From a virus, in the IMG/VR virus record IMGVR_UViG_3300045988_036440, positions 1-42,198 of that record: a stretch of 42,198 nt of DNA. One strand, 5' to 3'. A program made the translations under genes and the position numbers. Every line of letters begins with the position of its first letter. Within the stretch, counting starts at the first letter, position 1. This document shows positions 5,490 to 42,198 of the stretch, in pieces. The notes beneath the pieces are model-generated. The model had not been told where the DNA came from and did not search any database. It saw only the letters and a program-made list of their open reading frames with translations.

Positions 5490-6840
5490 AAAGCAATGTT
5501 CCCTCCTTGAAGATAATGGTGTGTTTGAACTTTGTTCTGGTCTTGGTTTCGATGCTAACATCGTCCTGTGTGAGGGCGGTTCCGAACGCATCTTGCGCGG
5601 AGATGGCAGAGACTTTTGTGATCTTTTCCGATGGCAGAAGCTCATACTGCAGCGTGACTGCCGCACCGGAAAGGCTCTTTGCGAGGTTCGGAACGGTATA
5701 ATCGCCGTTCAGCTGCACCATGTTGATGTGATCTGCCAGGTACGAGGCAAGGCTTGCCAGGAACAGCTGGGTCACAGATGCGGAAGCGGGCGCGGCGGCC
5801 GTCACCGGGACAAAATAATTTTGTCCCGGTGACGCAAAGGCATCCTTGCCCAAAATCCAGCTGCCAAGAAGATAGTGATACCGGCTTCCGTTTGCCAGCA
5901 CGGTGTCCGCGCCCTCCAGAATGGAGAGATTTACGTCCACGTCCGTTTTTTCGTTAATGCCGAAATAGCAGTCCGATGCGTACAGCGTTTCTCCCGCATC
6001 GTTCAGGAGCTCATAGTGGTTGACGGTCGAATTACCTGCCTCCGGTTCAATGGATGCTTCCAGCTTCAGGTTCTCGCCCGCGATCATCAACGTTTCAGAA
6101 CCCACCTGCAGTGTCGCAGATGCAATGACGCTTTTCAGCGGTTTCACGGTCGCTGCGCGGTTGAGCCGTGCCGTCGTGGCAAGCTCTGCCGCCTTGTGGG
6201 CCACGTCCAGAAGAAGCGTCCGCGTCAGTGTCGGCGATGCAGCGGCCTTTGCGGTCGTCCATCCTCCGAGTTCGGCAAACGGCTTTTTTCCAAGGGCCCA
6301 GCCGCCCAGACGATACTGATAATCGTATTTCTGCACATCGACCTGCTCTGTGATCAGGATCCCGGTCTTGAGGTACGGCATACTGATAAATACGATGTGA
6401 GCGGGCTTGATCTGGTTGATCAGGTGCGTCACCTCGTCGTAGTACGACTGGTTCTTTGCGCTCGTCGCAAGCCTCAGCTCGTAGAGCGGGTATGTGATGG
6501 AGCACGTCCATTCACCAGCGCCAATTAGTTCATCCAGCTTCTGATGCAGAAACCCCAGTGTGTAGGGCGGGCGGGTCGCAATGCGGGTCATTACACGCTG
6601 CCTGCGAAACTCCAGAGATTCCTTTTCCGGGACAGCCACGATGTGAAACACCTTTTCCCACTGTGCAACGGAATCCTCGTCCATGGTCTGGAAAAAGAAG
6701 TTGTTTTGAACCCCTTCCACGGAACCGGCCAGCAAACCAAACTCCGCTTTTTCAGCAGTGCAGATCTGCTGATAGTCCTGCACTTCCCGGTAGATGGGCG
6801 GCAGCAGCGGCAGCAGGTCGTGCGAAAGATCAAGCTTCAT
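5479..6840 (-). CDS. Baseplate/tail protein, XkdU (DUF2313/gpI-like) N-terminal domain with a long fibre-like extension
   Basis: The N-terminus LLPLLPPIYREVQDYQQI...FFFQTMDEDSVAQWEKVF resembles the XkdU/YmfQ family. Follows the baseplate J gene. Confidence 0.65.
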   Translation of the reverse strand: MKLDLSHDLLPLLPPIYREVQDYQQICTAEKAEFGLLAGSVEGVQNNFFFQTMDEDSVAQWEKVFHIVAVPEKESLEFRRQRVMTRIATRPPYTLGFLHQKLDELIGAGEWTCSITYPLYELRLATSAKNQSYYDEVTHLINQIKPAHIVFISMPYLKTGILITEQVDVQKYDYQYRLGGWALGKKPFAELGGWTTAKAAASPTLTRTLLLDVAHKAAELATTARLNRAATVKPLKSVIASATLQVGSETLMIAGENLKLEASIEPEAGNSTVNHYELLNDAGETLYASDCYFGINEKTDVDVNLSILEGADTVLANGSRYHYLLGSWILGKDAFASPGQNYFVPVTAAAPASASVTQLFLASLASYLADHINMVQLNGDYTVPNLAKSLSGAAVTLQYELLPSEKITKVSAISAQDAFGTALTQDDVSIETKTRTKFKHTIIFKEGTLLYGG

Positions 6841-7948
6841 GCAGCGTCACCGTCCCAACCACAGGAACCTGCTGCTGTTCGCCGGTCTCTGCCAAAATCA
6901 AATCGTCCGCTGCTCCGTTCAGCTGGACGTTTATCACGTTTACCACGCCCTCTGCCGTGATGATGGCCGCAGATACGCGGGCCGTGTAGACGTTGGCGCT
7001 GTATTCAATGCCGGTCTTGCTGATATTGGTCGCCCAGCTTTTCCGTACATTGAGCAGATATGCCTCCAACGCCTCCCGTACCGCGGTGCGAACTGTATCC
7101 AGAGAGTAGCTGGGCAGGAGCGTCACCGATGCGGTGACCGAAACTTCCAGCTTCTCCGGGGCCGTGATCGTTACCTTTGCACCGATGGGCGCAAGACCGA
7201 GCCCCTGCCCGGAGTTCGGCACCGGGTCGATGGCGTTCTGAATGGTCTGCACAAGGTCGGTGGATGCAGGCAGCCAGTCCGCACCCAGAACGGAGCAGAG
7301 CACCGTGCCGCCGCCTCTCCATGTCGGGTACACCTGCACAGCGCCCACACCGTCCAGCTTTTTGATCTCCTCCACGTACTGCGCCACATTGCCGCCAAAG
7401 GAGCGACTGTTCAGCGATGACTCGATGCGGGCGCGGAATTCGTCATCGGTCTCGGTCTCGTCTCCGGGTGTCAGGATATCCGAGATCCGGGCAGAGGTCA
7501 GGCCCTGAATGGTGTCGATGGGTAGGATAGGGCCGGTGTAGTCGTTGCCGATGGTGCCGGGTGTTTCGGCCAGAAGGCGGTAGGTGTGCCCGGAACCCAT
7601 AGCGGACAGCGCAATAAAGTTGATACTGTCCGCGCCGTTGATGGTAGAGAACCGGCTGCCCAGCGGGACAGCCACATTGAACTCGCCTTTTCGCACCGCC
7701 GCCGTGGCCTGCTTGCGGGTAACGCTGGCGATGGGTGCCAGCAGATCCAGTGCTCTGCCGGTGGCTGTCTGAAAAAACGCCTGCCGCTGCACCATGTTCA
7801 GGGAAAGAAAGAACCCCTCAAAGACATAGGCGGCGGGAGAAAGAGCCGTTGGGATGGGGCTTGTGTCCCGCTTGTCGTAGTCGTCCGGGATCTGAGACAG
7901 CATATAGTCCAGAATAGCCCGGTACTGTGCGGTAGAAAAATCGATCAT
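6830..7948 (-). CDS. Baseplate J-like protein (XkdT-like)
   Basis: Start at MIDFSTAQY (ATG 7948, RBS GGAGGTG, ATGA overlap with the upstream gene). Size and position match XkdT/gp47-like proteins. Confidence 0.7.
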   Translation of the reverse strand: MIDFSTAQYRAILDYMLSQIPDDYDKRDTSPIPTALSPAAYVFEGFFLSLNMVQRQAFFQTATGRALDLLAPIASVTRKQATAAVRKGEFNVAVPLGSRFSTINGADSINFIALSAMGSGHTYRLLAETPGTIGNDYTGPILPIDTIQGLTSARISDILTPGDETETDDEFRARIESSLNSRSFGGNVAQYVEEIKKLDGVGAVQVYPTWRGGGTVLCSVLGADWLPASTDLVQTIQNAIDPVPNSGQGLGLAPIGAKVTITAPEKLEVSVTASVTLLPSYSLDTVRTAVREALEAYLLNVRKSWATNISKTGIEYSANVYTARVSAAIITAEGVVNVINVQLNGAADDLILAETGEQQQVPVVGTVTLHEA

Positions 7949-8361
7949 GCTGCGGTATTCACCTCCGTGCTTGCCTGCATTTCGCCGTAGATCGTGGAGA
8001 CGGTAAAGGATGCTGTCATGGCCTGTCCCTGCACCGTGTAAGAAAAGTCCTTCACGCCGGTTACCCGGTCGTCCACGGTCAGGGCCTCTTCCAGGCGGCG
8101 TTGCAGTTCGGCAGCCACATAGCCCGGGGCTTGCCCCAGCAGCCCCTCCCACTCCATGCCGCTGTAAGAGCGGAAGATCTGCCAGCGATAACGTTCCACG
8201 TTCAGAATGATGGTCACGGCCTGTTTTACGGCCTCATACCCATCACATTCCCCGGTGATGCGGCCAGATGTCTGGTCAATGAACCAGGTTCTGGACGGCT
8301 GAGAAACGTACTCCACGCCGCCGGAAAGGTCGATGGACGGTCCTGTAGGAAGCGTAGCCAT
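7945..8361 (-). CDS. Baseplate wedge protein, XkdS/DUF2634 (gp25-like)
   Basis: 138 aa. Its position between the XkdR-like and XkdT-like genes, and the ...FIDQTSGRI...AVKQAV pattern. Confidence 0.6.
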   Translation of the reverse strand: MATLPTGPSIDLSGGVEYVSQPSRTWFIDQTSGRITGECDGYEAVKQAVTIILNVERYRWQIFRSYSGMEWEGLLGQAPGYVAAELQRRLEEALTVDDRVTGVKDFSYTVQGQAMTASFTVSTIYGEMQASTEVNTAA

Positions 8362-10685: not shown

Positions 10686-12692
10686 TTACTGCACGGTGAC
10701 GGTGCTGCCTGCGTTCATCATATCCAACAGAAGGTCCCGCAGGTTGTCTGCCAGATCTCGGGCATCCTTTTCGGTGTTGCCGGTGTTCTGCCCCTGCACA
10801 GTGATCATGGGGGTCTGGCTTGTCAGGTTGACATTGTTGACGTACTTGCGCTCTGCCACATCCACCAGCATCTTGATCTGCTCATCGGACAGGTCAACGG
10901 TTTTGGCGATCTTGCCGGTGTTCTTGTCGATGTTGCCCAGCAACTCATTGGCGCTTGTAGCTTGCGGAATTTCCAAATTTCCCGTTCCTGTGCTTCCAAA
11001 CATGCTGGAAGCACCCAGATTTGATCCCCACTTATATCCGCTTGCATAAGCGGAATCGAGGTCTTTTGCTGTCCACGGTTTGACGACTTCCTTATAGTCG
11101 TTCGTCCAAACTTCCCACTTGCGGGCGTTTTGAAACTGTGAAATTGTGTTATCCGCACGGGTCACCCAATCAACATCAACGCCCGGCAGAAGGTTCACCA
11201 CGCCTTGTGCGGCCTGAAGAATTCCCTTCAATGCGTTCATCACATTGATACACAGGTCATAGAACGCAATCTTAATCGTTGCAATCGGGTTGTTGAACAC
11301 ATTCGCCAGAAAGTTAGCGACTGCCGCAAATGCATTTTGCATTGGAAGCAGAACGGAGTTAAAAATAAACGCTCCAGCTTCTGCCAAGGAACCGGCGACT
11401 ATTCCCGCCGCTGCCCTTGCGCTTCCAGCATATCGAACGAATGCGCTTGCAAGGCCCAAAATAACAGGAGCAAGAAGTGCAGCAATTCCAAGCGGAACCG
11501 CAAATGCGGCAAGTGTTGCAATTTTACTTGCATTTGCCGCAATTGTAACAACGCCAAGTGCCGCTGCAAAAGCCAGCGCCGCCGGGGCGATGCTTTCCAT
11601 GTTATTGGCCACCCAGTTGATGGCCGTCAGCAGCGGTTCAAGCGCCCGGACGGCGGTATTGCTTGCCACCGTCCAGACCTGCGCCCAGGTCATGGGGGTC
11701 TTTTCAAACTCCGCGTTCGTGTCCTTGGCCGCCGCAAACAGTGCGTTTTTCACAATGTCGGCAGTGATCTGTCCCTGAGAGCCCATCTCGCGCAGTTCGC
11801 CCACGCTGACTTGCATATAGTCTGCAATGGACTTTGCCAGAGCCGGGGCCTGCTCCATCACGCTGTTCAGCTCATCGCCGCGCAGCACGCCGGATGCAAG
11901 TCCCTGTTCCAGCTGGAGGATCGCGGCCTGCGCAGACGAACCGGACGCACCGGAAAGGGCCAGCTGCTTGTTCAGCTGCTCTGCGAACTGCACGATCTCT
12001 TTGGAGCTGTTGAACGCATCACCGGCCATTGTGCCAAGCTGGGAGACCAGCCCCATGGTATCGGTAAAACTGCCCCGGGAACGCTGGGCCGACTGGTAGA
12101 TCATCGTTTCCAGCTCCTGCGTGGTCTGCAGGCCGTCGTTCATTCGGTCAAGCCGGGCACGCATGGAGACCAGACTGTCAGACAGGTCAACGGCCTTTTT
12201 CAGGCCCTGAATGCTGACATAGGACGTGGCCAGCCGGAGAACCGAAGATGTCAGGGAGTTGGTGACGCTTTGCGCCATATTTTCCTGCTCCTGCAGCCGC
12301 TTTGTAGCTGCTGCAGCCTCATCTTTGGCCGATGCCGCCACACTGGCAGCGTTTTCAGCTGCTTTCATGGATTGGGTCAGGGTCTGCTGCTGCGCTTCCA
12401 GCCCTCGAATGGTTGCGCCTAATTTCTCGGTCTGGGTGTCCAACTTTTTGAACGCTTCCGTGTTCTGCTGCCCAGCGGCTACCATTTCTTCCTGCTGTGC
12501 CACATACGATTCAAACTTTGCATTCGCAGAGATCAGCTGCCGAGAAACGCTGTTCAGAACAGACTGATAGTTCCGGGCTGCGGTCTGTGCCGCTGTGGTA
12601 GAGCTTGATGCTCTCTGTGCGGCCTGAATGTATGCGCCAAAGGAAGAGGAAAACTGATCCTGAAGGACAAGCGTTTCCTGAATTTTAGCCAT
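10686..12692 (-). CDS. Tail tape measure protein (668 aa)
   Basis: Long Ala/Gln-rich helical N-terminus. Core motif AAILQLEQGLASGVLRGDELNSVMEQAPALAKSIADYM. Hydrophobic middle segment. Position after the chaperone gene. Confidence 0.9.
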   Translation of the reverse strand: MAKIQETLVLQDQFSSSFGAYIQAAQRASSSTTAAQTAARNYQSVLNSVSRQLISANAKFESYVAQQEEMVAAGQQNTEAFKKLDTQTEKLGATIRGLEAQQQTLTQSMKAAENAASVAASAKDEAAAATKRLQEQENMAQSVTNSLTSSVLRLATSYVSIQGLKKAVDLSDSLVSMRARLDRMNDGLQTTQELETMIYQSAQRSRGSFTDTMGLVSQLGTMAGDAFNSSKEIVQFAEQLNKQLALSGASGSSAQAAILQLEQGLASGVLRGDELNSVMEQAPALAKSIADYMQVSVGELREMGSQGQITADIVKNALFAAAKDTNAEFEKTPMTWAQVWTVASNTAVRALEPLLTAINWVANNMESIAPAALAFAAALGVVTIAANASKIATLAAFAVPLGIAALLAPVILGLASAFVRYAGSARAAAGIVAGSLAEAGAFIFNSVLLPMQNAFAAVANFLANVFNNPIATIKIAFYDLCINVMNALKGILQAAQGVVNLLPGVDVDWVTRADNTISQFQNARKWEVWTNDYKEVVKPWTAKDLDSAYASGYKWGSNLGASSMFGSTGTGNLEIPQATSANELLGNIDKNTGKIAKTVDLSDEQIKMLVDVAERKYVNNVNLTSQTPMITVQGQNTGNTEKDARDLADNLRDLLLDMMNAGSTVTVQ

Positions 12693-13799: not shown

Positions 13800-15143
13800 T
13801 TACGCCACATCCAGAGTGATATAGATCTTGTTGGTGCTGCCCACGGCCTCGATGGCCAGAGTGATGAGCACAGCATCCTTTGCCTCGCCCGCTTCCACAA
13901 TGACATCGGTCTCGCCGTCAAAGTTCTGGATGCCGCCGGATGCCTGGATCTGATCCAGATACTTGACGATGGCGCTCTTGTACTGTCGGCGGCCGTCCTC
14001 GGTGTTGTCCACAATGCCAACATAGCTCTGGGCGAACTGCTTGTACAGATCGTTGGCAATGGTGTTGCACAGCCGCATGGTGCGGTTGTAGCGGTACACC
14101 TCGCCGATCTCGCTGGTATAGGTGACCAGAGAGTTGATGTCATACTCCACCCGGACGGTGCCGTCATCGGCGTTGAACACAAACTTGCCCGCGTTGATGG
14201 CATCCACATACTGGTTGTGGGTCATCTTGGGGGAAACGTCCACCGCGTTGGGAACGGCGGCATTCGTCAGGTCGTTGGCGTAGGTCGCGCCGGAAAGCGC
14301 ACCGCCGACCCACCAGACGGCTTCCTTCGGGGTCAGGGTAGTGCCATCGTTCATTACCAGACCGCTGCACACGTTGACGATAAAGCGGGTGTCAGGGTTG
14401 GTGGCATTGGCTTCTACCAGCTGAGAGAAGCGGCCCACTTCGGTGTTCACGCGCTTGATAAAGGTCTCCATCGCGGTCTTTACGGTGGCATCCTCGCCGT
14501 CGTACAGCATGGAATCGAAGTTGTAGGGCTCGATGTTCGTCAGGTAGGTGCTGTATGCGGCAGAGTTCACCTCGCCGTCCTTGCCGCCGGAAAGCTGGGT
14601 GCCGACATTTGCGGCCAGAGTGCCCGTGCCGCTGAAATCCACCCAGTCATTGCCGGTCAGGTCTGCAACGGTCTTGCCAGTCTGCTGATCCTTCACCACA
14701 CCGTCAACGACCGTGGAGACCTGGAAACTGCCCGCAGGTTCCGTCAGTGCAGTGACGATCACAACGATGTCATTGCCTCGGGATCCGGGAAATTTTGCGG
14801 TAGCCGTCAGCGGGGCGATAGCGCCGGTGGCCTTTGCGCTGTCCGCAGCGGCCGGGCGGTAAAGCAGCAGCTTGGTGGGTGCTGCGGTGCGGTTGGATCC
14901 GCTGAAGATCATGGATGCAAATCGATTGTGTGCGTCTGTGATGTCGTAACCGGTATAAGGGGTCAGGTCATCTCCGGCGGCGATCTCCATCACCTTGCCA
15001 ACGGGACCCCAGCTCATGGGTTCGCAGATCGTGACCTTGCCGCGGTCGCCAACGGTCAGATTCTGCTGGTTCTTGGAGCGAAATTTGAAGTAAATGCCGG
15101 GCCGCACCTTGTTCTGTACAGTCCAGGTTCCGCCTGCTGCCAT
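13800..15143 (-). CDS. Contractile tail sheath protein (XkdK-like)
   Basis: 447 aa. The N-terminus GTWTVQNKVRPGIYFKF is typical of sheath proteins. Synteny supports the call. Confidence 0.85.
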   Translation of the reverse strand: MAAGGTWTVQNKVRPGIYFKFRSKNQQNLTVGDRGKVTICEPMSWGPVGKVMEIAAGDDLTPYTGYDITDAHNRFASMIFSGSNRTAAPTKLLLYRPAAADSAKATGAIAPLTATAKFPGSRGNDIVVIVTALTEPAGSFQVSTVVDGVVKDQQTGKTVADLTGNDWVDFSGTGTLAANVGTQLSGGKDGEVNSAAYSTYLTNIEPYNFDSMLYDGEDATVKTAMETFIKRVNTEVGRFSQLVEANATNPDTRFIVNVCSGLVMNDGTTLTPKEAVWWVGGALSGATYANDLTNAAVPNAVDVSPKMTHNQYVDAINAGKFVFNADDGTVRVEYDINSLVTYTSEIGEVYRYNRTMRLCNTIANDLYKQFAQSYVGIVDNTEDGRRQYKSAIVKYLDQIQASGGIQNFDGETDVIVEAGEAKDAVLITLAIEAVGSTNKIYITLDVA

Positions 15144-26451: not shown

Positions 26452-26527
26452 TGGCACTCCAGGCAGGGCTCGAACCTGCAACCTACGGTTTTGGAGACCG
26501 CTGCTCTACCACTTGAGCTGCCGGAGT
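26452..26527 (-). tRNA. tRNA-Trp (anticodon CCA), with CCA encoded
   Basis: Acceptor ACTCCGG/CTGGAGT. D arm GCTC-AAGTGGTA-GAGC. Anticodon arm GCGGT-CTCCAAA-ACCGT. T arm GCAGG-TTCGAGC-CCTGC. Discriminator G, then CCA. Confidence 0.85.
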
Positions 26528-28530: not shown

Positions 28531-29063
28531 CTGCCGTCCTCCACATAGCACCAGCTTTGCGGCGGCCGCTCAATCCTTACAGGCTCGTAACCGAATTTTG
28601 TCGCCCGCAGCCTTGTGAAATCGCTCAACGGCCGCGGGCGGTCGTAAATTTTCAGGTCGGAAATGTTCCAGCCATACAAGTCTTTCAAATCCGCATAACT
28701 CATCCCGGACTTCCATCCGGCATAGTCTTTGACTTGCGGTACTGTGAGACAGCTTCCAGAAATTGCAGACTCGATATCTTCTTTGACGACACAGTATTCA
28801 GGGCCAATGCGTCGGATGTCATCGCAAATGAACTCTCCAATGATACGTCCCAACCTTTTTGGATATTTCCAGAGGTTCCATTCGTCCACATTCCGGGCAA
28901 GGGAATCTGTAAAAAACTTATCGCTTCCCGTCATGGTGCAGTAGATGTACACCTTGAACGGTGTCCCATGCGCAGGGCAGGACTTGCGGATTTCAACGGT
29001 CTTTTCGCCGTCAAGAATTTTCTTGCACCATTCGGGCCGAATGCTCATCAATACAGCTTTCAT
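28527..29063 (-). CDS. ASCH (PUA-like) domain protein
   Basis: The N-terminus MKAVLMSIRPEWCKKILDGEKTVEIRK is typical of ASCH domains. Confidence 0.7.
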   Translation of the reverse strand: MKAVLMSIRPEWCKKILDGEKTVEIRKSCPAHGTPFKVYIYCTMTGSDKFFTDSLARNVDEWNLWKYPKRLGRIIGEFICDDIRRIGPEYCVVKEDIESAISGSCLTVPQVKDYAGWKSGMSYADLKDLYGWNISDLKIYDRPRPLSDFTRLRATKFGYEPVRIERPPQSWCYVEDGR

Positions 29064-30220
29064 GCTTTTCCTCCAATCAAATCATCAATGCACATCTGGG
29101 TGGCCTGTTCCGGCACATCTTCCCAGCCGATGCCGATGTAGTCAAGCACACGGCCCCAGCCGTACCAGTTTCCGTTTTTGTCCCGGCAGACGTGTTTCAT
29201 CCAGAACTCCCACTCTTTGGGATTGGTCTCTCGCAAAATGTCGAACCGGTGTGGTCTTCCTTCAACGTGGATGCCAAACCCGCACATTGTGCAGCCGGTG
29301 CGCTGTGCCTTTGTGGTGTACAGATTTCCGTCCTTGTCCCGTGCGATCTCGCCGTATTCGGCCGGAATAGGCACATTCAGATCAAGTGCAAGCTGTAAAA
29401 CGTCCTGTCGATCAAAGATAGCAAATGGGGCGCTGCGGGTGGTTGTCTTTCCGAAATAGTTGCAGCCGTGCATCTTCAGGCTCTTTTCACGCCGCCCGCC
29501 CTCGCTTGCCATAAGGCCCATGTATGGCACACTGTTGTGGTCCCGTGCCCAGTCGTTGCAGGGCTTTTCCTTGAGGTAGTAGCAGCAGCGATCAGATACC
29601 TTAAACGGTGCAGCTTGGTATCCGAGTGCCGCTCCCTCCGCATCTGCGCCGCCAAACAAGTCAAGCCATTTCTGCGGAAGCTTCATCCGGCTGTTTTTCT
29701 GCCATCCGCCATATTCTCCGGTCTCGCCGGTGATGATTGCGTGCCGCACGGTGGCGTTCTGTTCGGTCGGGTTTTGCAGCAGCATGATCTTACCGGCTTT
29801 TTCTTTGCTGATTACTGGCCAGCCAAATTCCTGCAAAACCTGAACTTTGCTTTTCAGAGGCTTCAGGAACACAAAAGACGGCGCTTCACCCTCACCCATC
29901 CAGTTCTTGTATTCGGTTTCCATCTCTGCTGCCATCTGTTTATGCACCTGCTGCACGCCCTTTCCTTCCAGAGAGGAGCAGGACACACATGTAACTGGCA
30001 GCCCGATGTGCTCCAGAAAGTAATGCAGCGTGATGGAATCCAGACCTCCCACGGACAGGTGCACGCCCTTGTCGTGTTCTTTTGCCCAGTAATAGAACGC
30101 CTCGGCCATCTCCTGCGCGTGTTCCACCTTGCGCTTGTACTCCCACTTTTGCATCGTCTGAAAGCGCTCGATGTTCGCCAAAGAGCCGTTTTCAGCCATA
30201 ATTTCTTGTACTGTTCTCAT
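29060..30220 (-). CDS. PAPS reductase / PP-loop ATPase family protein (IbrA/DndC-like)
   Basis: PP-loop motif HLSVGGLDS. C-terminal Cys cluster CTMCGFG. 386 aa. Confidence 0.75.
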   Translation of the reverse strand: MRTVQEIMAENGSLANIERFQTMQKWEYKRKVEHAQEMAEAFYYWAKEHDKGVHLSVGGLDSITLHYFLEHIGLPVTCVSCSSLEGKGVQQVHKQMAAEMETEYKNWMGEGEAPSFVFLKPLKSKVQVLQEFGWPVISKEKAGKIMLLQNPTEQNATVRHAIITGETGEYGGWQKNSRMKLPQKWLDLFGGADAEGAALGYQAAPFKVSDRCCYYLKEKPCNDWARDHNSVPYMGLMASEGGRREKSLKMHGCNYFGKTTTRSAPFAIFDRQDVLQLALDLNVPIPAEYGEIARDKDGNLYTTKAQRTGCTMCGFGIHVEGRPHRFDILRETNPKEWEFWMKHVCRDKNGNWYGWGRVLDYIGIGWEDVPEQATQMCIDDLIGGKA

Positions 30221-37902: not shown

Positions 37903-38102
37903 GCTTTCTTTCCTTCCTGCTGCTCTTCCAGCAGCTTGTCAACCGTGCAGCCATACAGGGCTGCGATTTTGGGCAGCATCGAAACGCGAGGATTGTTTGC
38001 GCCGGTCTCCCAAAAGGAGATTGCCGACTGGTCAACGCCAAGCGCGGCCGCTGCCTGTTTTTGCGTAAGTCCTGCTTTTTCCCGCAGTTCCGCGAAACGC
38101 AT
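37899..38102 (-). CDS. Cro-like XRE HTH regulator (67 aa)
   Basis: Start at MRFAELREKAGLTQKQAAAALGV (RBS AGAGGTG). The longer 38144 start in the track is rejected. Confidence 0.75.
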   Translation of the reverse strand: MRFAELREKAGLTQKQAAAALGVDQSAISFWETGANNPRVSMLPKIAALYGCTVDKLLEEQQEGKKA

Positions 38103-38137
38103 TCTTTCACCTCTTTCTACAATATTAGTTTTTCTCA

Positions 38138-38166
38138 TTGACAAGCGAAAGAAAGCAAGCTATAAT
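38138..38166 (+). promoter_or_regulatory. Perfect consensus promoter: TTGACA, 17-nt spacer, TATAAT, pointing rightward toward the CI-like gene
   Basis: TTGACA at 38138-38143 and TATAAT at 38161-38166. Confidence 0.7.
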
Positions 38167-38235
38167 AAAGGTGTCAAACAAATATTTTAGCGGGTTTCTT
38201 ATTAGTTTTGTATTAGTTTCGCTCATCACGATATT

Positions 38236-38264
38236 AGTATATATCATTGTTATTAGTTTGTAAA
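38236..38264 (-). promoter_or_regulatory. Leftward promoter: TTTACA, 17-nt spacer, TATACT, pointing toward the Cro-like gene
   Basis: Minus-sense TTTACAAACTAATAACAATGATATATACT. It is flanked or overlapped by ATTAGT(T/A)T repeats. Confidence 0.5.
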
Positions 38265-38326
38265 GCCCAAAATATTAGTTTTGTTAGTTTTCGTCGTTAT
38301 GCACAGAAACAAAAGGGGGCTTTTGT

Positions 38327-38650
38327 ATGTTTTGGAACAACTTTGAAGCTCTATGTGCTGAAAAGGGTATTTCCTACAATGCAGCAGCCGCCGATGTTGG
38401 TGTAAAATCGTCTGGAACTGTGACCGGTTGGAAAAACGGAGCAAAACCAAGAGGACCTGTATTAAAAAGGTTGGCCGATTACTTCGACGTTACTGTCGAG
38501 GAGCTCACCGGCGAAAACGAGCAAAAAGAAAAGCCCAGCACCGCCGGAGAGATAGATTTGAGTGGTCTATCTCCCGATGATGCCGAGCTTGTAAAGCTTC
38601 TATTGAAAGCGCCAGAAGCAAAGAAGAATGCGATCCGGGCGCTGCTGTGA
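38327..38650 (+). CDS. CI-like XRE HTH repressor (107 aa)
   Basis: HTH pattern FEALCAEKGISYNAAAADVGVKSSGTVTGWKNG. RBS AAAAGGGGG. Confidence 0.75.
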   Translation: MFWNNFEALCAEKGISYNAAAADVGVKSSGTVTGWKNGAKPRGPVLKRLADYFDVTVEELTGENEQKEKPSTAGEIDLSGLSPDDAELVKLLLKAPEAKKNAIRALL

Positions 38651-38651
38651 T

Positions 38652-38756
38652 TTAGCTGTTTAAAATATCGAGGACTTTCTGACGAAATGCAGGGTCACTC
38701 TTTAGCTTTTCGATGATCTTTTTGATTTCGTCCGGGCTGAACTGTGATTCCTGCAT
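38652..38756 (-). CDS. Very small protein (34 aa), convergent with the repressor gene
   Basis: Strong RBS AAAGGAGGAAAACAAA before the ATG. Hand translation: MQESQFSPDEIKKIIEKLKSDPAFRQKVLDILNS. Confidence 0.45.
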   Translation of the reverse strand: MQESQFSPDEIKKIIEKLKSDPAFRQKVLDILNS

Positions 38757-38782
38757 TTTGTTTTCCTCCTTTAGAAATATAG

Positions 38783-39505
38783 ATGTACGAGGTGTTAGAA
38801 TTGAAATTCAAGCACAAGGGATGTGCCATTGCGAGCGGGTTTGTTTCTCTTTTATTGTTATCACAAGTGCAATTTCATAAAGAAGATTCCCCGTTCAGTA
38901 TCATCTGGTCATCTCTTATTGTCTTTCTGGTATTTTTTTCTTTGTCCTATCTGTTCAGTCGCCTTCTGGTCTTGTTGTTCAGAAAGAAACGCAGCAAACT
39001 ATTGAAGCGGTCTGAGGTGGACTATGACATGTCAGAAACCAATAAGTCCCAAGCAGATGCCATATATACACTCAAAGACGCGCCTGTTCTTTGGAAAAGC
39101 AGTGTATCCGCATTAAAGAATGCCTTAACGCCAGAAGATTTCTTTCGGCTGTATGATGATCTCGTAGATTACGCAAAAGAAATATTGGCGGCGGAATCTG
39201 TCTGGCTTTCTTTCAATGATTCTTCAATTATTTCTAAAGAAAGCAGAGAAAACATTGCTGACGTTGCAAACGGAAATTGTTTTGAAGATGAATTAACTGC
39301 GTTTATTGAACAGTCTTATAAATTGGCAAAAGCTAAAATCGAAGTGAAAGAGACTGCTTCAGATAAAAGGAACGCCGCAAGAGCGTGGCATACCAGTTTT
39401 GACCCTTACTTGTCCAGAATGCCAGAAAAAGAGATTCATCTTCTCCATGAAAAGTACGGCGAACTTATCATGCTTGCTGATACATCAAATCTTTGTTCTC
39501 TGTGA
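38783..39505 (+). CDS. Membrane protein with two N-terminal TM helices and a cytoplasmic domain of about 160 aa. First gene of the AT-rich moron.
   Basis: TM segments CAIASGFVSLLLLSQV and FSIIWSSLIVFLVFFSLSYLFSRLLVLLF, followed by RKKRSK. The likely start is TTG 38801, after GAGGTG. Confidence 0.65.
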   Translation: MYEVLELKFKHKGCAIASGFVSLLLLSQVQFHKEDSPFSIIWSSLIVFLVFFSLSYLFSRLLVLLFRKKRSKLLKRSEVDYDMSETNKSQADAIYTLKDAPVLWKSSVSALKNALTPEDFFRLYDDLVDYAKEILAAESVWLSFNDSSIISKESRENIADVANGNCFEDELTAFIEQSYKLAKAKIEVKETASDKRNAARAWHTSFDPYLSRMPEKEIHLLHEKYGELIMLADTSNLCSL

Positions 39506-39512
39506 GGTTAAA

Positions 39513-40859
39513 ATGTCATTATTTGGAATAAAAGAAAAACAAGAACTTGAGGCCCTTCGTTCCGAGAATCAGAGCGTTACAGAAAAGAACGCTGCGCTTG
39601 AACAAGAACTGGAAGAGCTCAAAAAACAGAACGGCGCTCTTTCTGCAACAGTGGATTCTTTCCCTAAAAACCTTCCTTCATATAATGATATTCAGGAAGA
39701 AATCAAGAAAAGGACCGCTTATCTTGCTGGGTTAAAAGCTACGATTTCAGATACAGAAGATAAGCTAAAAGCGGCAAAACAAAGTCTTATCGAAGTCTCC
39801 GATGCCGTTCAGCTTCAGGATTTTGGCCTGTATACTCCGCACTACAATCTAATGCGTGCGGATGAGTACAAGGCTAAAATGATGGAGATCAGAGCCTTGC
39901 AGAAGGATATGGTTCGCAATGGCTCTGCCGTCACCGGCTCCCAGACCTGGACGGTCAACGGAAACGCTTCTAAGGGCAAAAAGATGGTGGCCGACATGCA
40001 GAAGCTGCTTCTGCGGGCGTTCAACGCTGAATGTGATGACGTAATCGAGCACGTCAAATACAACAACGTGGAAACCGCAGAAAAGCGCATCACATCCTCT
40101 CAGGAGGCAATCACAAAGCTGGGCACGATCATGGGGGTCTCCATTGTCCCTTCCTACTACCGACTGAAGCTGGAAGAACTTTATCTCGCTTTTGAGTACG
40201 CCCAGAAAAAGCAGGAAGAAAAAGAAGAGCAGCGGGAAGCCAGAGCCCAGATGCGGGAAGAGGCCAAGCTCGCAAGAGAAATCGAAGAGGCTCGGAAAAA
40301 GCTCGAAAAAGAGCAGCAGCACTATAATAATGCTCTTGCAAAGGTAAACGCCCAGCTGGATGCCGCTTCTGAAGAGGATCGAGCCGCCATCGAAGAAAAG
40401 AAGAGCATCATCGAGAGCCAGCTCCAGAAGATCGACAAGGAGTTCGCAGACGTGGATTACCGTCAGGCAAATCAGCGTGCCGGATATGTATACATCATTT
40501 CGAACATCGGAGCATTCGGAGAGAATGTGTACAAAATCGGAATGACACGGCGGCTTGACCCTCAGGATCGAGTGGACGAGCTGGGAGACGCTTCTGTTCC
40601 GTTCAATTTCGATGTTCACGCAATGATCTTCTCTGACGATGCGCCGAAACTGGAAGCCGCCCTGCACAACGCATTTGCGGACAGGAAGCTGAACTTCGTC
40701 AACCAGCGGCGGGAGTTCTTTAATGTAACGCTTGAAGAAATCAAAAAAGTTGTGAAAGAAAACTTTGACAAATCCGTTGAGTTCGTCGAACTTGCCCCCG
40801 CACAGCAATACCGTGAATCCATTCTGCTTCGGAAGAAAGTGCAACAGCAAGATAGCTAA
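39513..40859 (+). CDS. DUF4041-like plus T5orf172/MUG113 (GIY-YIG superfamily) domain protein, 448 aa. Candidate defence nuclease.
   Basis: Start at MSLFGIKEK (GAGG 5 nt upstream, overlapping the upstream stop). Long coiled coils. C-terminus GYVYIISNIGAFGENVYKIGMTRRLDPQDRVDELGDASVPFNFDVHAMIF...REFF. Confidence 0.7.
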   Translation: MSLFGIKEKQELEALRSENQSVTEKNAALEQELEELKKQNGALSATVDSFPKNLPSYNDIQEEIKKRTAYLAGLKATISDTEDKLKAAKQSLIEVSDAVQLQDFGLYTPHYNLMRADEYKAKMMEIRALQKDMVRNGSAVTGSQTWTVNGNASKGKKMVADMQKLLLRAFNAECDDVIEHVKYNNVETAEKRITSSQEAITKLGTIMGVSIVPSYYRLKLEELYLAFEYAQKKQEEKEEQREARAQMREEAKLAREIEEARKKLEKEQQHYNNALAKVNAQLDAASEEDRAAIEEKKSIIESQLQKIDKEFADVDYRQANQRAGYVYIISNIGAFGENVYKIGMTRRLDPQDRVDELGDASVPFNFDVHAMIFSDDAPKLEAALHNAFADRKLNFVNQRREFFNVTLEEIKKVVKENFDKSVEFVELAPAQQYRESILLRKKVQQQDS

Positions 40860-40892
40860 TTTCCTACCACAAATGCATTATACATCTTTCAG

Positions 40893-40917
40893 TTGTAATA
40901 TTCAACAGATATTACAA
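40893..40917. terminator. AT-rich perfect 9-bp inverted repeat TTGTAATAT-TCAACAG-ATATTACAA between convergent genes. Possibly a bidirectional terminator.
   Basis: Read directly. Followed by AATAAATTCGATTTTT. Confidence 0.4.
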
Positions 40918-40951
40918 AATAAATTCGATTTTTCTGAAAATAGTTAGATTT

Positions 40952-42023: not shown

Positions 42024-42198
42024 ATGAAATGTGTCAGATGTCACGTAAACATCCCGGACAAGGCTTTATTTTGCCCGTGGTGCGGAAAGCAGCAGGATGC
42101 AACGTCAGCTCCCGTGCATAGAAAAAAGCGCCGCCGTCCAAAGGGCAGCGGCAGCGTGTACAAGCTGAAAGGGGTCCGGGCAAGGCCCTATGTAGCCG
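42024..42198 (+). CDS. int: Integrase N-terminus with a zinc-ribbon motif. Continues at nt 80 of the window through the 79-nt overlap.
   Basis: RBS AAAGGAG at 42011-42017. ATG at 42024. Translation MKCVRCHVNIPDKALFCPWCGKQQ... runs open to the window end and is in frame with 1..1035. Confidence 0.85.
   Translation, partial: MKCVRCHVNIPDKALFCPWCGKQQDATSAPVHRKKRRRPKGSGSVYKLKGVRARPYVA
42120..42198. repeat. Copy of the terminal direct repeat (equals nt 1-79)
   Basis: Identical string at both ends. Confidence 0.95.

Follow-up and report, generated by a model that had tools for sequence, protein, structure and literature searches.

SNIPE is the PD-lambda-1 of Vassallo et al. (2022, PMC9519451), characterised by Saxton et al. 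(2026, PMC13190303) as a membrane-bound nuclease that cuts phage DNA during injection. Its N-terminal transmembrane (TM) helix is followed by DUF4041, which binds DNA and the tape-measure protein of the infecting siphovirus, and by a GIY-YIG nuclease; E. coli SNIPE minus its TM helix is toxic through cleavage of host DNA (PMC13190303). No TM helix is present in 34% of SNIPE homologues. These were explained by targeting domains of another kind at their own N-terminus, and the DivIVA-like, PH or DUF4428 modules that such homologues carry were proposed to offer other routes to the membrane; a hypervariable N-terminal adaptor region was also reported for single-gene SNIPE (PMC13190303). The subject here is a pair of adjoining plus-strand genes in a stretch of viral DNA of 42,198 nucleotides (nt), IMG/VR record IMGVR_UViG_3300045988_036440, called the window when the whole of it is meant. 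Gene 2 (39513..40859) encodes a SNIPE/PD-lambda-1 homologue without a TM helix, and gene 1 (38801..39505), immediately upstream, encodes a membrane protein with two TM segments. The kind of protein specified by gene 2 is already known; what appears to be new is the family to which gene 1 belongs and its coupling to a TM-less SNIPE, and gene 1 is weighed below as a candidate for a separately encoded membrane anchor.

Judged by its sequence, gene 2 is clearly a SNIPE/PD-lambda-1 homologue. Its 448-residue product matches the PADLOC profile PD-Lambda-1 (PDLC03976) with E=1.4e-160, residues 9-446 aligning to profile positions 44-479 of 491, and phrog_1847 of PHROG with E=1.2e-155; there is no other strong PADLOC match in the cassette. 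Pfam places DUF4041 (PF13250) at residues 164-219 (E=9.3e-25, with the whole profile covered) and a GIY-YIG-type module at the C-terminus, residues 324-416 (T5orf172, E=2.2e-19; MUG113, E=1.4e-20). Identity to the PD-lambda-1 of an E. coli phage, which itself agrees at 9 of the 9 residue positions named in the SNIPE paper, is 46%. The catalytic glutamate is kept, E381 of gene 2 aligning to SNIPE E414, and is invariant among 26 relatives; the nuclease motifs are invariant too. No solved structure was matched when gene 2 relatives were used in a sequence search. The preliminary description of this DNA, made from the letters and without database searches, had taken gene 2 for a DUF4041/T5orf172 defence protein, and the Pfam domains and the PADLOC match bear this out; the membrane-anchored single-gene nuclease that it mentioned is, from the literature and PADLOC alike, SNIPE/PD-lambda-1.

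Unlike the published single-gene SNIPE, gene 2 has no TM helix (maximum 19-residue Kyte-Doolittle average 0.79, with no segment above 1.5) and has a coupled, conserved two-TM protein upstream. The helix is present in E. coli PD-lambda-1 and in gp42 of the C. difficile phage CDMH1, where the same measure reaches 3.37 and 2.6. Gene 2 still counts as a SNIPE since more than a few accepted homologues, the 34% referred to above, are likewise without it. An AlphaFold2 model (mean predicted local distance difference test score, pLDDT, 67.8) has an N-terminal helical hairpin (residues 6-103), DUF4041, a helix of ~100 residues and a C-terminal alpha/beta domain, which as predicted is the published SNIPE layout minus the TM helix. 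The order DUF4041, long helix, GIY-YIG/T5orf172, the catalytic glutamate and the hypervariable N-terminus are all shared with SNIPE/PD-lambda-1, and to be phage-encoded is common to many SNIPE homologues. With the DivIVA-like, PH and DUF4428 homologues gene 2 shares the missing helix and the variable N-terminus; in those, however, the targeting module is in the same polypeptide, whereas the candidate module here is a separate gene product. The N-terminus of gene 2 is a plain helical hairpin with no marked amphipathic character in its first 18 residues. It begins with a motif, MSLFG.KE (residues 1-8, 39513-39536), which is nearly invariant among TM-less SNIPE relatives, the ~90-residue coiled coil that follows being hypervariable. 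A docking peptide, a translation signal or a recombination boundary could each account for its conservation; its candidature as an amphipathic membrane-binding helix was dropped on account of a low hydrophobic moment (0.04-0.29).

Might the lack of the helix that the characterised E. coli protein has mean that gene 2 is decayed, or a DUF4041 protein with no part in defence, in a cassette now devoid of function? That is highly improbable. Purifying selection on the core of gene 2 is very strong (omega, the ratio of non-synonymous to synonymous substitution rates, 0.01-0.05), the catalytic glutamate and the nuclease motifs do not vary, the profile match is full-length and intact relatives are numbered in thousands.

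Gene 1 had been described as a plus-strand open reading frame (ORF) with two TM helices followed by a soluble domain of no recognisable family, starting at ATG 38783. The description stands apart from the start. The ATG, from which the product would be 240 residues long, is without a ribosome binding site (RBS); TTG at 38801 has GAGGTG 6 nt upstream, gene calls for most of the relatives begin at the equivalent position, and this TTG, giving 234 residues, is probably the true start. Hydropathy reveals two hydrophobic segments and then a C-terminal domain of ~150 residues. In the AlphaFold2 model a hairpin of TM helices (H6-27 and H31-66) leads through a disordered acidic linker to an all-helical C-terminal domain with pLDDT >90. 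The hairpin is bordered by basic residues at either end, and by the positive-inside rule the probable topology is thus N-in/C-in with a cytoplasmic C-terminal domain. That gene 1 is a genuine gene, kept by purifying selection, is seen in dN/dS values of 0.1-0.4 in both its parts.

What gene 1 belongs to is a new family, of ~120 protein clusters, all from gut metagenomes and all unannotated. There is no match to it in Pfam, PHROG or PADLOC, and no relative in 50,697 deposited phage genomes or in 185,579 species-representative genomes. A Foldseek search of the model against the Protein Data Bank (PDB) had a best E of 0.09, and known folds were rejected as an identification since the listed candidates (14-3-3 and designed proteins) are helical-repeat noise; against BFVD only uncharacterised gut-phage proteins were retrieved (E=6e-4 to 2e-2). 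Neither an enzymatic nor a known sensor domain was seen in the model. Several database entries of 147-217 residues give the impression of truncated, TM-less alleles of gene 1, and this too was rejected, the entries being explained by miscalled TTG starts (L186), contig ends (L201) and a poly-A frameshift (L200). In the last of these (~1000-1025 of the locus) the run in the linker is A6 instead of A7, which puts the TM part out of frame and leaves a product of 147 residues (P0116); it is either a sequencing error or slippage.

The two genes are joined by a junction, TGAGGTTAAAATG (39503..39515, plus strand), in which the stop of gene 1 overlaps the RBS of gene 2 and the gap between the genes is 7 nt. 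It reads ctgTGAGGttaaaATG, with the TGA stop at 39503-39505, GAGG at 39504-39507 and the ATG at 39513, exactly the positions on which translational coupling had been proposed. The junction is identical in 13 of 13 metagenome loci. SNIPE lies 7 nt downstream in all 31 loci that encode gene 1 proper (L001-L017, L186 and the 13 metagenome loci), and the pairing extends beyond these to divergent forms of the partner and to a second prophage backbone, so that the gene pair does prove to be conserved together. One such form, P0243, is ~30% identical to gene 1 over the C-terminal domain, has two TM segments and is encoded 8 nt upstream of a SNIPE of 461 residues; its backbone is that of a different prophage, in which it occupies a slot between a LexA-type repressor and an integrase. 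A junction of the P0243 type, in L167, is near-identical in design: TGAGGTAAAAAATG. Another type of partner (L173-L175) consists of proteins of 192-195 residues, with two hydrophobic segments and a helical domain that is shorter; these score weakly against the gene 1 profile (E=1.5e-6 and 1e-4), and their genes either overlap SNIPE by 1 nt or stop 2 nt short of it.

These divergent types are ~22-30% identical to gene 1. All types begin with a basic N-terminal tail, continue with two hydrophobic segments and have a basic patch or linker after these, consistent with N-in/C-in topology, and across all of them the spacing to SNIPE is -1 to 8 nt. With a broader family profile, members were found only directly upstream of SNIPE, with one orphan, P0242. 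When 1.84 billion representative proteins were searched by phmmer with the C-terminal domain of gene 1, 8 matches came up, of which only P0106, P0242 and P0243 look true; extension by profile added just P0248, of the same lineage, and scans of viral contigs with P0243 and with the L173 partner had no matches. The orphan (L169, 1010-2593) is a protein of 527 residues that combines DUF4236, TM segments and a gene 1-like C-terminal domain, and it is located after a CI-like repressor in the lysogeny module of another prophage.

How general is a separate membrane partner? SNIPE relatives from Clostridia genomes and gut phages form 73 clusters at 90% identity, 9 of which have their own N-terminal TM helix. 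The 64 TM-less clusters comprise 5 with a gene 1-family partner upstream, 7 with some other TM protein within 40 nt upstream (L124 is an example) and 52 with no membrane neighbour. A general rule that a TM-less SNIPE has a membrane protein upstream was thereby rejected, with none in 52 of 64 clusters; what stands upstream is mostly a LexA-like repressor or an ImmA-like peptidase, the solitary SNIPEs often following directly after such a gene. A separate anchor would then be clade-specific rather than general, given the 52 of 73 clusters that have neither a TM helix nor a membrane neighbour.

Several other considerations also weigh against taking gene 1 for the missing anchor. In four phages with the same backbone as that in the window (L018-L021) the SNIPE core is 98-100% identical to that of gene 2 and gene 1 is absent, and it is absent too from L170-L172, again on that backbone. 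The SNIPEs that have a partner all come from one clade, with identity to gene 2 of at least 71%, and the pairing may therefore have had a single origin, with the linkage partly a matter of inheritance. The lack of a TM helix in gene 2 is by itself no evidence of a split system, given its lack in a third of homologues. The phmmer search brought to light no protein in which the C-terminal domain of gene 1 is fused to SNIPE, and within 150 bp after P0242 no SNIPE start is seen, the contig ending there. The correspondence between types of C-terminal domain and types of SNIPE coiled coil is imperfect (L002 versus L001) and would in any case be expected of adjacent DNA.

Much of this would follow if gene 1 were an independent membrane moron, one that blocks DNA injection alone, as in superinfection exclusion, for example, and that merely shares a slot and a transcript with a self-sufficient TM-less SNIPE. 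The solitary clusters and the sister phages that have a near-identical core without gene 1 fit such independence, as does P0242, in which the C-terminal domain occurs with no adjacent SNIPE. In many prophages, CDMH1 included, SNIPE is the sole occupant of the repressor-integrase slot, and unrelated membrane proteins also occur upstream of SNIPE (the two-TM HIRAN and zinc-ribbon protein of L124), as in a moron hot spot. Lactococcal Sie proteins such as Sie2009 are small membrane proteins that act at DNA injection and are encoded in the repressor-integrase slot of temperate phages of Gram-positive bacteria, and gene 1 resembles the Sie2009 type in being a small membrane protein in that position. 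It is unlike them in being strictly linked to a nuclease gene, which to our knowledge is not a feature of Sie proteins, and in matching no PHROG family; nor has it similarity to any PADLOC family, whatever Sie-type families the two collections contain. With the sole exception of P0242 the gene 1 family is always beside SNIPE (36 loci, three partner subtypes, at least two backbones), the distance to it never exceeds 8 nt, the stop codon either running into or adjoining the RBS or start codon, and gene 1 is swapped as a block with the N-terminus of SNIPE, not singly. An independent moron is in our estimation unlikely, while deserving to be taken seriously.

The evidence for block exchange comes from comparison of alleles. 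In gene 1 a segment corresponding to the TM hairpin and linker (38813..39055, plus strand), delimited by blastn breakpoints and protein alignment, is replaceable: it has at least two allele types that cannot be aligned at the DNA level (dN ~0.7, dS saturated), and the rest of the gene is ~95% identical between alleles. In the C-terminal domain dS is up to 1.45 between members of the lineage. The N-terminal coiled-coil module of SNIPE, residues 1-95 (39513..39797, plus strand), is variable and is exchanged together with gene 1; synonymous divergence is saturated between types at residues 8-95 and is 0.08-0.3 in the core (residues 96-448), the part to which the low omega values apply. SNIPEs of L019 and L020, phages without gene 1, are 34% identical to that in the window over residues 1-95 and 98-100% over residues 96-448. 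The first ~270 nt of the L019 gene are 96-100% identical to L170 and ~55% to the window, and over the last ~560 nt identity is 96-99% with the window and 67-80% with L170; from these values the gene is a recombinant, of L170 type at the 5' end and of window type at the 3' end. The pattern of allele divergence and the L019 mosaic indicate that gene 1 and the SNIPE N-terminal coiled coil are an exchangeable cassette on a conserved core, a parallel to the hypervariable N-terminal adaptor of the published single-gene SNIPE. In the sister phages the slot of gene 1 (L019, 3518-3937; L170, 3450-3912) contains a plus-strand ORF of 66/67 codons and two small minus-strand ORFs, of 49 and 41 codons, none of them with a Pfam match.

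Since nearly identical cores occur in phages without gene 1, the nuclease core is tolerated without it, given a different N-terminus. This bears on a further explanation, that gene 1 is a regulator or immunity factor which keeps a cytoplasmic and potentially self-toxic TM-less SNIPE inactive until a membrane signal of phage entry frees or activates it, on the lines of a sensor-effector pair such as KwaA/KwaB or of a toxin and its antitoxin. The toxicity of SNIPE without its TM helix in E. coli would supply the need for such a factor, a membrane hairpin joined to a conserved and probably cytoplasmic domain has a plausible form for one, and Kiwa and Zorya have been described as systems of membrane sensor and effector. 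An upstream, translationally coupled position is typical of antitoxin or immunity genes, and gene 1 is so placed. Nonetheless, an almost identical core does without gene 1 in the sister phages, the model of gene 1 has no enzymatic or known sensor domain, and a regulatory role appears quite improbable.

That gene 1 is instead a separate membrane anchor or adaptor of a TM-less SNIPE variant is the reading favoured here, and confidence in it is about balanced by doubt. It is favoured because the architectures of the two proteins are complementary, because sister SNIPEs with cores ~70% identical (L032-L035) have a fused two-TM N-terminus, because the linkage is tight and deep, and because the exchange is as a block. 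The preliminary description had proposed a two-component split system; the conserved, coupled pairing on which that idea depended is upheld, but gene 1 as the missing anchor is not established by it, given the 52 of 73 solitary clusters, the gene 1-less sisters and the want of a fusion. It had also ventured that a two-component variant was not known to have been described, and in the accessible papers neither a two-gene SNIPE nor a description of the gene 1 family was found.

Under the anchor reading the hairpin of gene 1 would sit in the membrane with both ends cytoplasmic, as the positive-inside rule predicts, and its helical C-terminal domain would dock on the variable N-terminal coiled coil of SNIPE. 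Thus docked, the nuclease would be kept at the membrane, at a distance from the host chromosome and near the sites of phage DNA entry, where it would cut phage DNA on injection; the host DNA cleavage that makes the helix-less E. coli protein toxic provides the rationale for a tether. Exchange of the hairpin and coiled coil by recombination could change the range of phages, or of entry routes, against which the nuclease acts. A more tentative extension is that gene 1 and its divergent relatives are exchangeable adaptors, with swapped hairpin, docking domain and coiled coil redirecting one nuclease core to different routes of entry. The concept, a membrane component with a cytoplasmic DNA-targeting effector at the site of genome entry, is akin to that of Zorya and of Kiwa, in which KwaA is a membrane protein and KwaB a DNA-binding effector. 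This is an analogy only: unlike the case in a shared system, there is no relationship of sequence or fold, and gene 1 has no PADLOC match.

A second, unrelated kind of membrane partner may exist. In prophage-like sequences of Oscillospiraceae (L124, 3228-3884; L126, 2989-3855) a membrane protein is encoded 16-17 nt upstream of a TM-less SNIPE of 420 residues. Both proteins start with a TM region and end in a zinc ribbon, and the middle of that in L124 is a HIRAN (DNA-end-binding) domain.

The setting of the pair is the lysogeny module of a complete phage. The window ends with the same 79 nt with which it begins (42120-42198 and 1-79), from which it is taken to be a circularly closed genome of ~42.1 kb, and the integrase gene (zinc-ribbon N-terminus and integrase domain; 42024-42198 plus 1-1035) crosses the circle junction. 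Genes for tail sheath (13800-15143), tape measure (10686-12692) and baseplate wedge (6830-8152), all on the minus strand, accompany those for portal, terminase and major head protein, and mark the phage as contractile-tailed and temperate. It comes from the human gut, and its host is probably a member of the Clostridia, the relatives of gene 2 in the genome collection pointing to Faecalibacterium, Oscillospiraceae, Lachnospiraceae and other Clostridia. Myoviruses are reported to be unaffected by SNIPE, and a contractile-tailed resident may consequently be insensitive to its own. Elsewhere in the genome are a minus-strand tRNA-Trp gene with anticodon CCA (26452-26527) and a minus-strand PAPS-reductase-like gene (29060-30220; phrog_424, E=1.4e-27), the latter in the PHROGs class of moron or auxiliary metabolic genes.

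Upstream of the pair a perfect sigma-70 consensus promoter, TTGACA-17-TATAAT (38138..38166, plus strand, 12 of 12 hexamer matches), points at a repressor-like gene of the helix-turn-helix (HTH) Cro/C1 type (38327..38650, plus strand, 107 residues; Pfam HTH_3, E=6.7e-7, and PHROG families of transcriptional regulators and repressors). A promoter-like site with 10 of 12 matches (38264-38236, minus strand) faces a Cro-like HTH gene, which together with a Rha-type anti-repressor gene lies on the minus strand. The promoter pair, in the most AT-rich stretch of the window (35% GC), looks like a phage genetic switch. Rightward the order is repressor-like gene, a 34-codon ORF on the opposite strand, gene 1 and gene 2, and beyond gene 2 come two small minus-strand ORFs, an HTH gene of 195/216 residues and then the integrase. 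A terminator scan listed no plus-strand terminator-like site between the promoter or repressor gene and gene 1, so co-transcription of repressor gene, gene 1 and gene 2 in the lysogen is likely, and the sigma-70 promoter probably drives that transcript. The placing of the cassette on the lysogen-expressed strand in the lysogeny module, as originally suggested, accords with these features.

The 34-codon ORF (38652..38756, minus strand), noticed from the outset for its strong RBS, does have one, AGGAGG, and is conserved in all loci of the lineage; gene calls include it in L001-L006, L174 and L186, and L174 keeps 30 of its 34 residues. Any transcript that read through from the repressor gene to gene 1 would have this ORF in antisense.

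An AT-rich cassette had been noted by eye, and composition supports this for the whole (38651-40950, 43.8% GC; 2300-bp windows average 55.3%, sd 3.9) and for gene 1 (39.6%), the window overall being 55.2%. Gene 1 is near the contig minimum for windows of 723 bp (38.6%, at 38651; mean 55.1%, sd 4.9). Gene 2, however, lies at 48.0%, a mild departure, with 49.9% over the final two thirds; the AT-rich signal is thus due mostly to gene 1 and the switch region (38050-38350). A 9-bp inverted repeat (40893..40917) does exist in the convergent intergenic region 3' of gene 2, but that it closes the cassette is not demonstrable. It was rejected as a terminator: it consists of A and T only, the terminator scan did not list it, and shuffled sequences fold as well as the region does (z=-0.65).

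SNIPE tells self from non-self by location, cutting DNA only where phages inject it, and a third or so of its homologues lack the membrane helix by which that location is enforced. Were gene 1 to be the anchor, a separately encoded partner would be a testable answer for one SNIPE clade, and exchangeable adaptors would be one concrete way in which TM-less homologues reach the membrane, with modules of specificity swappable between phages independently of the nuclease. The setting is that of abundant phages of human-gut Clostridia, in which few defence mechanisms have been tested. Even if gene 1 should act independently, it would represent a new family of prophage membrane proteins strictly linked to a defence gene.

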